A stretch of DNA of 64,000 nt, from contig CAQUUC010000001.1 of assembly GCA_948896235.1 (NCBI GenBank), positions 410,063-474,062 of the forward strand, given 5' to 3'. Positions 6,620 through 9,000 of the stretch are shown here, piece after piece. The stretch comes from an uncultured Clostridia bacterium. GTDB lineage: Bacteria; Bacillota; Clostridia; TANB77; CAG-508. The notes beneath the pieces were generated by a model that searched no databases, was not told the DNA's origin, and saw only the letters and a list, made by a program, of their open reading frames with translations. The translations under genes were made by a program, and so were the position numbers. How positions within the stretch are numbered: position 1 is the stretch's first letter; each line of letters begins with the position of its first letter.

Positions 6620-6659
6620 AAAAGTTTGATAGTTGCATCTTAGCAACTATCAAACTTTT
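6620..6659 (-). terminator. Rho-independent terminator after galE
   Basis: Perfect 15-bp stem aagtttgatagttgc / gcaactatcaaactt with a 6-nt loop, followed by a T-rich tract on the minus strand. Confidence 0.7.
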
Positions 6660-7659
6660 ATTTATCTTTTATATAATTCCAAGAATCTCTACACATTTCA
6701 TCTATACCAAGATTTGCTTCCCATCCTAATTCTTCTCTTGCTTTTTTAGGGTCTGCATAACAACTAGCAATATCTCCTGGACGTCTTGGTGCAATCTTAT
6801 ATTCTACTTTCTTTCCTGTAGCTTTTTCAAAGGATTTTACCATATCTAGTACACTATATCCATTTCCTGTACCTAAATTATAAATAAATAAACCTTTTTT
6901 CTCTTTTTCTAATTTTTCTAATGCTTTTATATGTCCAATCGCTAAATCTACTACATGAATATAGTCTCTTACTCCTGTTCCATCAGGTGTATTATAATCA
7001 TTTCCAAACACTGATAATTCTTTTAATGTACCTTTTGCAACTCTTACTATATATGGCATTAAGTTGTTTGGTATTCCTTGTGGTTCTTCTCCTATTAATC
7101 CACTTTGATGTGCTCCTACTGGATTAAAGTATCTTAAAATACATATGTTCCAAGTTGGATCTGATGTATAAATATCCTTTAATATTTGTTCAATAAATAA
7201 TTTTGATGTTCCATATGGATTTGTTGTTCCTCCAGTTTTACATTCTTCCGTAATTGGTATTGTTTCTGGATCTCCATATACTGTGGCAGAGGAACTAAAT
7301 ACAAAAGTTTTTACAGCATATTTTTTCATAGTATCTAATAACACTAATGCTCCTGAAACATTGTTTACATAATATTCGATTGGTTTTGCAACAGATTCTC
7401 CAACAGCTTTAAATCCTGCAAAATTTAAAACTGCTTCTATTTCATTTTCTTCAAATACTTTCTCTAAGGCTTCTCTATCTAAATAATCTATTTCATAAAA
7501 CTTAAAATCTTTTCCTGTAATCTCTTTAATTTTATCTAATACTTCTGGCTTACTATTTGAAAAATTATCTATTATAACAACATCTTTCCCACTATTTAAT
7601 AATTCTACTACTGTATGGCTTCCAATATAACCTGCTCCACCTGTAACTAAAACTGACAT
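6658..7659 (-). CDS. galE: UDP-glucose 4-epimerase
   Basis: 333 aa. [17 protein letters not shown] Rossmann motif and YGTSK catalytic motif, with full-length similarity to GalE. Confidence 0.9.
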
Positions 7660-7692
7660 TTTTGTACCTCCTTTATTTTGTGTTATTATATA

Positions 7693-8196
7693 TCAAGTAA
7701 TATTATTTGTAAATGATTTTATTTCTATTTCCTCTAGTAATATTTCGCTCATCTTTATTATGTCTGGAAAAACTACTTTTTTCCCTTTCTTAGCAATTTC
7801 TAATACAAGATTTGCTTTTTCTTTTATTTCTCTTTCCAATTTATTTGTTACTGTTACTTTATCACTTTTTCTTACATATACTTCTTCAATATATTTTTCT
7901 ATTGTAGGAAACATATTTTGTATTAGAAAAACCCTTTCCTCTCCACCAACCTTGCCAAACACTAAAGTATCAACTTGCTTATATTTTTTTAATTTTTCTT
8001 TATAAATTTTTTGATACTTGTCAACTTTAGAACTTATTGGTATAAACCAAAGTAATCCTTCTTTTTTCTTATCTCTAAAACAATAATAACATGGTCTTTT
8101 ATTCCCGTTATCTTTATTCTTTGATAAATTGCTGTCTTTCATCTTTTCGAAAAAATAATCTTTTAAAAAATAGAATTTTCCCTCTTCAACTTTCAT
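7693..8196 (-). CDS. Small basic protein resembling type III toxin-antitoxin / abortive-infection endoribonucleases (ToxN/AbiQ/CptN-like)
   Basis: 167 aa. The N-terminal pattern is KFYFLKDYFFEKM..NLSKNK....KRPCYYCF......LLWFIPISSKVDKY. This resembles my recalled ToxN/AbiQ consensus (FY.v...Y...l...d..v..Nk....RPy.gv.......yyaPLtSpK.Kh). I could not run a search. Confidence 0.4.
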   Translation of the reverse strand: MKVEEGKFYFLKDYFFEKMKDSNLSKNKDNGNKRPCYYCFRDKKKEGLLWFIPISSKVDKYQKIYKEKLKKYKQVDTLVFGKVGGEERVFLIQNMFPTIEKYIEEVYVRKSDKVTVTNKLEREIKEKANLVLEIAKKGKKVVFPDIIKMSEILLEEIEIKSFTNNIT

Positions 8197-8326
8197 ATTT
8201 CTTTTCCTCCTACTTGCTTATAAAACAAAAATAAGGAGCTTACTATTAAAATCTTAGTAAACCCCCTATTCAATTTGTTCACCTACGCATTTGTTCTTCG
8301 CAAGTAGGGTTGCGAAACCTATTTGT
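8197..8326 (-). ncRNA. Structured 5' leader RNA of about 130 nt, upstream of the ToxN-like gene
   Basis: Contains a 7-bp hairpin TTCGCAA-CCCTAC-TTGCGAA (8297..8316). The loop and 3' arm CCTACTTGC is perfectly complementary to GCAAGTAGG (8209..8217), which abuts and overlaps the AGGAGG RBS. The motif AACAAAU occurs three times. A weak hairpin plus T-tract lies before the RBS. Confidence 0.35.
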
Positions 8327-8333
8327 TAATAGT

Positions 8334-8362
8334 ATGATAACATATGTCTTTACATATGTCAA
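8334..8362 (-). promoter_or_regulatory. Sigma-A type promoter of the ToxN-like gene
   Basis: On the minus strand: TTGACA, a 17-nt spacer, then TG-n-TATCAT (extended -10). The spacer contains two direct copies of GACATATGT, each a palindrome core ACATATGT. Confidence 0.55.
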
Positions 8363-8397
8363 TTATATTTTATGCATTCTTTTGAATTTTATGTTAA

Positions 8398-9000
8398 TTA
8401 TTTATAAAGTTCTTTATATATCTTATAATCTCTCAAAATCTTTCTTACATAATTATTAGTTTCTTTAAATGGTATGTTTTCTATATCGCTACCATCTTCT
8501 TTTATAATTCCTTGTTCTATCCACCTTTTCACATTACCAATTCCAGCATTGTATGCTGTTAATGCTAGCAAATAATTATTGTTGTATTCTTTCATTAGAT
8601 TTGAGAAATATTTAGTTCCAAGTTGTATATTTAATTCTGGATCATATAGCGATTTTCCTTCTACAAAATTAATTTCTAACTTTCTTGCTATTTCCTCTGC
8701 TGTTCGATCCATTAACTGCATAAGTCCTATAGCATTACTTGAAGATACTACATTTGGATTAAAATTACTTTCTGCCTTTATTATTGCAAATACAAGAGTT
8801 GGATCTACATTATATTCTTTTGAGTATCTATATACATACTCAGAATATTTAGTTGGATATATTTTCTTTAATACTATGTTTTGAATTTTAAATACACCAA
8901 ATAATAATATTGATACCAACATTATTATTGATAGTATAATTGTTATCTTCATAATTTTCTTTTGCAAACTTTTCTCTCCTATCTTTTTACTTTGCCTCAT
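8398..9000 (-). CDS. Membrane-anchored lytic transglycosylase (SLT domain)
   Basis: 200 aa with an N-terminal TM helix. SLT catalytic motif AIIKAESNFNPNVVSSSNAIGLMQLM and AYNAG. Confidence 0.8.
   Translation of the reverse strand: MRQSKKIGEKSLQKKIMKITIILSIIMLVSILLFGVFKIQNIVLKKIYPTKYSEYVYRYSKEYNVDPTLVFAIIKAESNFNPNVVSSSNAIGLMQLMDRTAEEIARKLEINFVEGKSLYDPELNIQLGTKYFSNLMKEYNNNYLLALTAYNAGIGNVKRWIEQGIIKEDGSDIENIPFKETNNYVRKILRDYKIYKELYK

Follow-up and report, generated by a model that had tools for sequence, protein, structure and literature searches.

A 64-kb window of an uncultured Clostridia bacterium (contig CAQUUC010000001.1, positions 410,063 to 474,062, GCA_948896235.1; window coordinates are used hereafter) contains at 7693-8362 on the minus strand what is very probably a chromosomal CptIN type III toxin-antitoxin (TA) system with the layout standard for the family. 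The toxin gene is cptN, and the leader upstream of it is the canonical CptI antitoxin, present once, rather than a substitute for it. The initial annotation, made from the letters alone, had taken the leader as an atypical alternative to an antitoxin. That view is abandoned here; the unit in the leader is identical to the tandem repeat of two orthologous loci, L001 and L002. The identification as CptIN is independent of whether the single copy is real or an assembly collapse.

The 167-aa product of cptN matches the NCBIfam equivalog NF047359 (type III toxin-antitoxin system CptIN family toxin) with 188.4 bits (E = 6e-56), where the cut-off is 90 bits, and covers 150 of the 150 profile positions. 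It is 41% identical over 148 aa to CptN of Eubacterium rectale (PDB 4RMO_A, E = 1.6e-27). The catalytic residues Ser51-Ser52-Arg53 of E. rectale CptN (Rao et al. 2015, PMC4627078) are aligned with Ser55-Ser56-Lys57, with Arg replaced by Lys in the window. Tyr104 in the same protein (PMC4627078), which stacks on the scissile A, is aligned with Tyr107. Among 26 relatives, S55 is invariant, and S56, K57, and Y107 are kept in at least 90%. The ratio of nonsynonymous to synonymous substitutions (dN/dS) is 0.06-0.16 at synonymous distances (dS) of 0.55-1.7 from relatives; cptN is under purifying selection.

The profile match agrees with the initial annotation in that the protein belongs to the type III TA endoribonucleases. 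The narrower label given there, ToxN/AbiQ-like, has to be replaced, as the family is CptN. The profile search suggested there, with Pfam ToxN_toxin (PF13958), gave 15.6 bits (E = 0.019), under the gathering threshold of 25, and PADLOC AbiQ also remained sub-threshold (E = 5.5e-4). With both below threshold and NF047359 far above it, membership in ToxN/AbiQ was rejected. The fold class of the window toxin is related to ToxN/AbiQ, yet the toxin is no member of the ToxIN/AbiQ family. At the C-terminus (window 7693-7740), the proteins of the window and L001 are 167 aa long and most relatives are 157-162 aa; the tail (..EIKSFTNNIT) extends about 6-10 residues beyond most relatives.

The features of the locus, in the order in which they would be transcribed, are as follows.

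8334-8362, minus strand: sigma-70-type promoter, with -35 TTGACA (8362-8357), a 17-nt spacer, and extended -10 TGnTATCAT (8342-8334)
8340-8360, minus strand: two copies of the palindrome ACATATGT in the promoter spacer, jointly an inverted repeat ACATATG-N5-CATATGT
8321-8327, minus strand: 5' boundary motif AACAAAU, with predicted processing between A8324 and A8323 (A^AAU)
8276-8323, minus strand: CptI unit, the predicted processed RNA of 48 nt AAUAGGUUUCGCAACCCUACUUGCGAAGAACAAAUGCGUAGGUGAACA, the same as the tandem unit of L001 and L002
8273-8279, minus strand: 3' boundary motif AACAAAU, being the first 7 nt of a second unit, with predicted processing between A8276 and A8275
8222-8271, minus strand: intrinsic terminator, a 17-pair hairpin (8271-8229) followed by a U-tract
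8206-8217, minus strand: GCAAGUAGG (8217-8209), which overlaps the ribosome-binding site (RBS) AGGAGG (8211-8206) and is the complement of CCUACUUGC (8308-8300) in the unit
7693-8196, minus strand: open reading frame (ORF) of 167 aa, cptN, type III toxin and predicted endoribonuclease, based on profile, structure-homologue alignment, and dN/dS

The unit profile, searched with nhmmer over the whole window, gave a single match (8324-8273, E = 1.6e-14). The array amounts to ~1.15 copies, one complete 48-nt unit and the first 7 nt of the next. To place this array in its family, one genome per GTDB species was scanned, which yielded 80 related loci, all from Clostridia metagenome-assembled genomes. 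The three closest relatives, L001-L003, with protein identities of 86, 81, and 78%, are in the same polA-SLT-cptIN-galE context. They have 2.1 tandem copies of the 48-nt unit AACAAATAGGTTTCGCAACCCTACTTGCGAAGAACAAATGCGTAGGTG between the same promoter and an equivalent terminator. This unit is identical to window 8327-8280, where it is present once; from the 3' boundary motif a full second unit continues in L001-L003. By profile, two units were counted in 75 of the 80 loci, three in one, and one in four, two of the last being contigs cut inside the array. Tandem repeats are thus found in 76 of 78 informative relatives, and one unit by profile in the window. The copy number of the array is regarded here as a variable trait of the orthologous locus and not as a criterion of homology.

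Other searches are silent at this leader. Rfam showed no family match in 7600-8500, even at E <= 10. Tandem Repeats Finder reported no array at the leader, and its sole result was an A/T-rich 15-mer inside the ORF. The earlier statement that the antitoxin repeat array is absent is accordingly right as to tandem repeats and wrong as to the antitoxin, one complete unit being present. Tandem Repeats Finder also misses ~20 of the 80 related loci, in which the two units are diverged and the fold is kept. The unit shows 0-1 changes across the distances at which cptN has reached dS of 0.55-1.7, so the antitoxin RNA is constrained at least as strongly as the protein.

The minus strand has three copies of the motif AACAAAT (8327-8321, 8295-8289, and 8279-8273), as had been noticed before. 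In the window it has 49 matches per 128 kb (both strands), which gives ~0.02 expected in 55 nt; the cluster is therefore not a product of chance. AAAU at the unit boundaries is invariant in 59 of 59 distinct units, on both sides. The AAAU inside loop L2 (see below) varies among relatives (AAGU, AAAA) and is therefore no conserved boundary. Of the three motifs, in which the initial annotation had seen the AAAU core reported for ToxN, the two at the unit boundaries are predicted processing sites, and the third is part of a pseudoknot loop. Cuts at A8324^A8323 and A8276^A8275, placed by analogy with the CptI of E. rectale, which is cut at GA^AAG (PMC4627078), would give the 48-nt RNA 8323-8276.

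The CptI unit forms an H-type pseudoknot with the same architecture as E. rectale CptI. Its elements are as follows.

8310-8317, minus strand: 5' arm of helix S1, UUUCGCAA, from covariation
8309, minus strand: loop L1, a single C
8304-8308, minus strand: 5' arm of helix S2, CCUAC, inside the S1 loop, from covariation
8296-8303, minus strand: 3' arm of helix S1, UUGCGAAG, from covariation
8287-8295, minus strand: A-rich loop L2, AACAAAUGC, which holds the middle AACAAAU and has AUAUAAAUG, L2 of E. rectale CptI, as its counterpart
8282-8286, minus strand: 3' arm of helix S2, GUAGG, from covariation

The hairpin UUCGCAA/UUGCGAA has the loop CCCUAC, which is complementary to the downstream GUAGG. 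The initial annotation had described this 7-bp hairpin and its pseudoknot-like pairing and had proposed a covariation analysis of the leader, and this analysis, over an alignment of 59 distinct units, is in agreement. S1 (columns 10-17 with 24-31) shows changes on both sides in six of eight pairs, and its core is paired in 97-100% of sequences. S2 (columns 18-23 with 42-47) shows changes on both sides in five of six pairs, with 88% of cells paired. Altogether both sides change in 11 of 14 pairs. Doubly changed cells number 142, against 49.9 +/- 7.3 in shuffled alignments and at most 58 when the partners are slid, and paired cells are 80% against 35-44% with slid partners. Examples of S2 variants are CCUAC/GUAGG, AUUAGG/CCUAAU, AUCAAC/GUUGAU, and ACUGGU/ACCAGU. 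Folded alone with a predictor of nested structures, the unit is unremarkable (z = -0.8), because such a predictor cannot model a pseudoknot; covariation was used instead.

The promoter matches the consensus at 11 of 12 positions and has TG ahead of the -10, consistent with the strong extended -10 promoter noted earlier; transcription is predicted to start near A8327. L002 and L003 have the same promoter upstream of their arrays. The two copies of ACATATGT(C) reported in the spacer were both located, and they partly overlap the ACA of the -35 and the TG of the extended -10. The half-sites of this inverted repeat are kept in L002 and L003 with a variable centre, and L044 has ACATAT..ATATGT. The inverted repeat might be an operator, or merely the -35 ACA and the extended -10 TGT with four extra bases.

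The hairpin of the terminator folds with -19 kcal/mol (z = -5.55), and none of 200 shuffled sequences folds as well. Every related locus inspected has an equivalent hairpin and T-tract at this position. The earlier reading of a hairpin and U-tract as the terminator that sets the antitoxin:toxin ratio is kept, although with 17 pairs the hairpin is not weak as had been thought. The RBS lies 9 nt ahead of the ATG of cptN.

The ORF lies alone, with a galE-like epimerase gene (6658-7659) on one side and, on the other, a gene for an SLT lytic transglycosylase (8398-9000) followed by polA. Both neighbours are where the initial annotation had placed them and were confirmed by Pfam matches on public contigs that are 100% identical. 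The intergenic region between SLT and cptN is 201 nt long and contains, in minus-strand order, the promoter, the CptI unit, the terminator, and the RBS. This is the standard type III layout of Blower et al. (PMC3401426).

By analogy with characterized systems, the locus would most likely work in the following way. The strong promoter would start transcription a few bases ahead of the first AACAAAU. The single 48-nt CptI unit of the transcript would fold as the H-type pseudoknot, with S1 UUCGCAA/UUGCGAA, the one-nt L1, S2 CCUAC/GUAGG, and the A-rich L2. Most transcripts would end at the strong terminator (8271-8222), leading to an excess of antitoxin RNA, and those that read through would also carry cptN. 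At both unit ends, CptN would cut within the invariant AAAU of the precursor, and it would stay bound to the released pseudoknot in an inactive state, probably as a 2:2 heterotetramer. If the supply of antitoxin failed, free CptN would cleave cellular RNA and growth would stop. That one unit may suffice is consistent with experiments on E. rectale CptI, where a single repeat with processable flanks fully neutralised the toxin when overexpressed (PMC4627078).

Several points weigh against the window locus being a working CptIN system. The operational definition of type III requires a tandem array (PMC3401426), and the range published for cptIN is 1.9-3.4 copies, compared with ~1.15 in the window. 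Shortened arrays in cis can fail; antiQ with 0.8 repeat was inviable (PMC5086642), and ToxI of Pectobacterium needed 2.5 repeats (PMC5086642). The toxin is broken in some strains of the same species, which indicates that the locus is dispensable, and abortion of phage infection is not demonstrated for any CptIN system.

The departure of the window from the family norm is its ~1.15 units, compared with 2.15 identical ones in the closest relatives. It would be due either to a recent recombinational contraction or to assembly collapse, and the odds between a real contraction or polymorphism and a collapse are about even. The case for collapse, to which we give slightly less than an even chance, is that the genome has two or more identical tandem units and that a de Bruijn assembler skipped the 48-nt loop. 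It concerns the copy number alone and is compatible with the identity as CptIN; the locus would then be fully canonical. The protein identical to that of the window is found on at least 24 public contigs, of which at least 14 end at the array. Over 18 kb, L092 (GCA_948974575.1) matches the window with 100% identity; at the array it has 100 N, the gap lying between two copies of the 55-nt unit+AACAAAT. SPAdes contig L094 and seven similar contigs begin exactly at -131, the position of the 56-mer whose last base is the first one beyond the periodic stretch. Of the Logan contigs (k = 31), five begin exactly at -106, the first unique 31-mer. Starts at these points are expected where two or more units form a loop in a de Bruijn graph. 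L101 and L102, which come from a close relative, are broken in the same way.

The window, on the other hand, is gap-free over at least 64 kb, and L087, L093, and L099, which have an intact toxin, are contiguous with one unit. Among these, L087, like the single-unit relative L004, is a SPAdes contig of ~5x coverage, where loss of the loop is plausible. One unit is likewise present in each of the four assemblies of a sister strain with the split toxin, among them two MEGAHIT k141 contigs and a Logan contig. Contigs would break at the same places if the genome had another copy of the unit outside this locus; the 64-kb window contains none. JGI metagenome contigs were scanned for the unit-unit junction GCGTAGGTGAACAAATAGGTTTCGC and for the unit and nothing was found, so a two-unit array resolved in this species was not directly observed. 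A scan of IMG/VR viral contigs for the unit also found nothing, and there is thus no evidence of a phage-borne locus.

The initial annotation had further proposed that the leader occludes the RBS. The complementarity is real: CCTACTTGC (8308-8300) and GCAAGTAGG (8217-8209) are perfectly complementary over 9 nt, and the pairing is present in both the minimum-free-energy and the centroid folds of the full leader (z = -5.2). On this proposal, the leader would be mainly a cis-acting riboregulator, in which CCUACUUGC pairs with GCAAGUAGG and hides the RBS. Toxin translation would be set by how the leader folds, or by free leader RNA acting as an antisense in a type I-like manner; either would take the place of protein-RNA sequestration. 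L001-L003 and L101/L102 keep the pairing despite differences in the neighbouring bases, L003 extends it to 10 nt, and L100 carries GUAAGUAGG, a C-to-U change which would retain a G-U pair. However, the complementarity is limited to the closest clade of seven loci (the window, L001-L003, and L100-L102), which is shallow, and common ancestry accounts for it. The complementarity is missing from L004 and L044, although their unit is nearly identical. Over 81 loci, the duplex energy between antitoxin and RBS is -10.5 kcal/mol for cognate pairs and -10.4 kcal/mol for the non-cognate control, in which the pairings of loci were shuffled, showing no enrichment. Besides, three of the nine bases are simply Shine-Dalgarno, and the pairing competes with the pseudoknot that covariation strongly supports. 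A mainly riboregulatory leader is thus unlikely. Sequestration of the RBS finds no support across the family, and it may be an addition specific to this lineage. In L001 (~75 nt) and in L050/L055 (~65 nt), insertions are present between the antitoxin terminator and the toxin RBS, and L001 retains the GCAAGTAGGAGG element beside the RBS.

If the one-unit array is real, the clade might switch between one and two units by recombination and thereby alter the antitoxin dosage, with the pairing of GCAAGUAGG at the RBS adding a type I-like layer that makes one unit sufficient. The antisense pairing would join the CptI core to the RBS of the toxin, either within a read-through transcript (in cis) or in trans. 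We regard this extension as improbable.

It is equally improbable that the locus is a decaying remnant which has lost one antitoxin unit and no longer works as a TA pair: broken alleles do occur in the same species, with a 22-nt insertion after nt 183 of cptN in L081-L084 (after the base matching window 8014; stop after residue 63) and a 114-nt deletion in L085 (window 8189-8302) in which the unit loses its 3' half and the terminator, the RBS, and the start codon are gone. The window ORF, however, is intact with its catalytic residues kept, its protein is identical in at least 24 contigs, and the elements ahead of it, from promoter through unit and terminator to RBS, are complete and agree with the ones in relatives under purifying selection.

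Among known type III systems, the CptIN of E. rectale (PDB 4RMO; PMC4627078) is similar to the window locus in many respects. Its CptI sequence, AAGUUUACCACUGACCGAUAUGUGGUAUAUAAAUGGUCGGGUUGA, was read from a primer used for cloning (PMC4627078, Table 2). The two toxins have 41% identity and share Ser-Ser-(Arg/Lys) and Tyr104/Tyr107, and the order of promoter, CptI, terminator, and cptN is the same. Both RNAs consist of a 5' tail, S1, a one-base L1, S2, an A-rich L2, and a short 3' tail ending in A; L2 is 9-10 nt long, ends in AAAUG, and contains UAAAUG. Both have A at the predicted scissile position, with the cut within an A-run (A^AA). The differences are also clear. The unit is 48 nt in the window and 45 nt in E. 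rectale, and S1 has seven pairs instead of five. Three bases separate the S2 5' arm from the S1 3' arm in E. rectale and none do so in the window. The boundary is A^AAU in the window and A^AAG in E. rectale. The residues that read the scissile adenine in E. rectale, Asp81 and Ser85, are not conserved in the window toxin and are aligned with a gap and Arg88, respectively, and E. rectale has ~2 units against 1.15.

The cptIN family as described by Blower et al. 2012 (PMC3401426) is likewise chromosomal and from Clostridia, with repeats of 40-48 nt, a toxin of ~160 aa, and a terminator between the repeats and the toxin. That catalogue required a Tandem Repeats Finder match and gave 1.9-3.4 copies, so the window locus would be discarded, as would many relatives whose two units are less than 80% alike. 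ToxIN (Pectobacterium, Bacillus, and E. coli) and AbiQ/antiQ work in essentially the same manner: the RNA antitoxin is repetitive and is cleaved at A-rich sites (AA^AU, A^AAAA, and GAAAU) by its own toxin, an endoribonuclease, which the pseudoknotted product then holds inactive, and a terminator sets the antitoxin:toxin ratio. They differ from the window locus in the toxin family (the window protein scores 15.6 bits against 25 for ToxN_toxin, and E = 5e-4 for AbiQ), in having 34-36 nt units in 2.8-5.5 copies, and in forming heterohexamers with triplex pseudoknots.

Some observations were made on the arrays of the relatives. In 47 of the 76 multi-unit relatives, among L005-L080, identity between the two CptI units is below 85% and falls to 57% at the lowest; examples are L005 (-156..-57) and L029 (-156..-56, both relative to the start codon). 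The diverged units each keep S1 and S2 by compensatory changes, and unit-1 and unit-2 types are position-specific across ~45 loci. Such pairs could mean that a complex contains two distinct RNAs, or that selection disfavours losing a unit by recombination. L038 (-194..-65) and L075 (-188..-59) have 63-nt units with an insertion of ~15 nt in L2, which exceed the published cptI range of 40-48 nt. Several metagenome-assembled genomes have two different cptIN loci of the subfamily, each with distinct units, for example L003+L055, L012+L022, L017+L028, L030+L063, and L050+L058.

For annotation, the name cptN is appropriate for the gene, and cptI for the upstream RNA of 48 nt. The detection of tandem repeats alone misses type III loci with a single unit or diverged units, all of which are recovered by a structure-aware profile. 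At 48-nt tandem repeats of the CptI kind, assemblies from short reads are unreliable. A real one-unit state would be the smallest natural CptI array so far and would set a lower bound on the antitoxin dosage needed by a chromosomal CptIN locus. Apart from this, nothing about the locus is new in kind.

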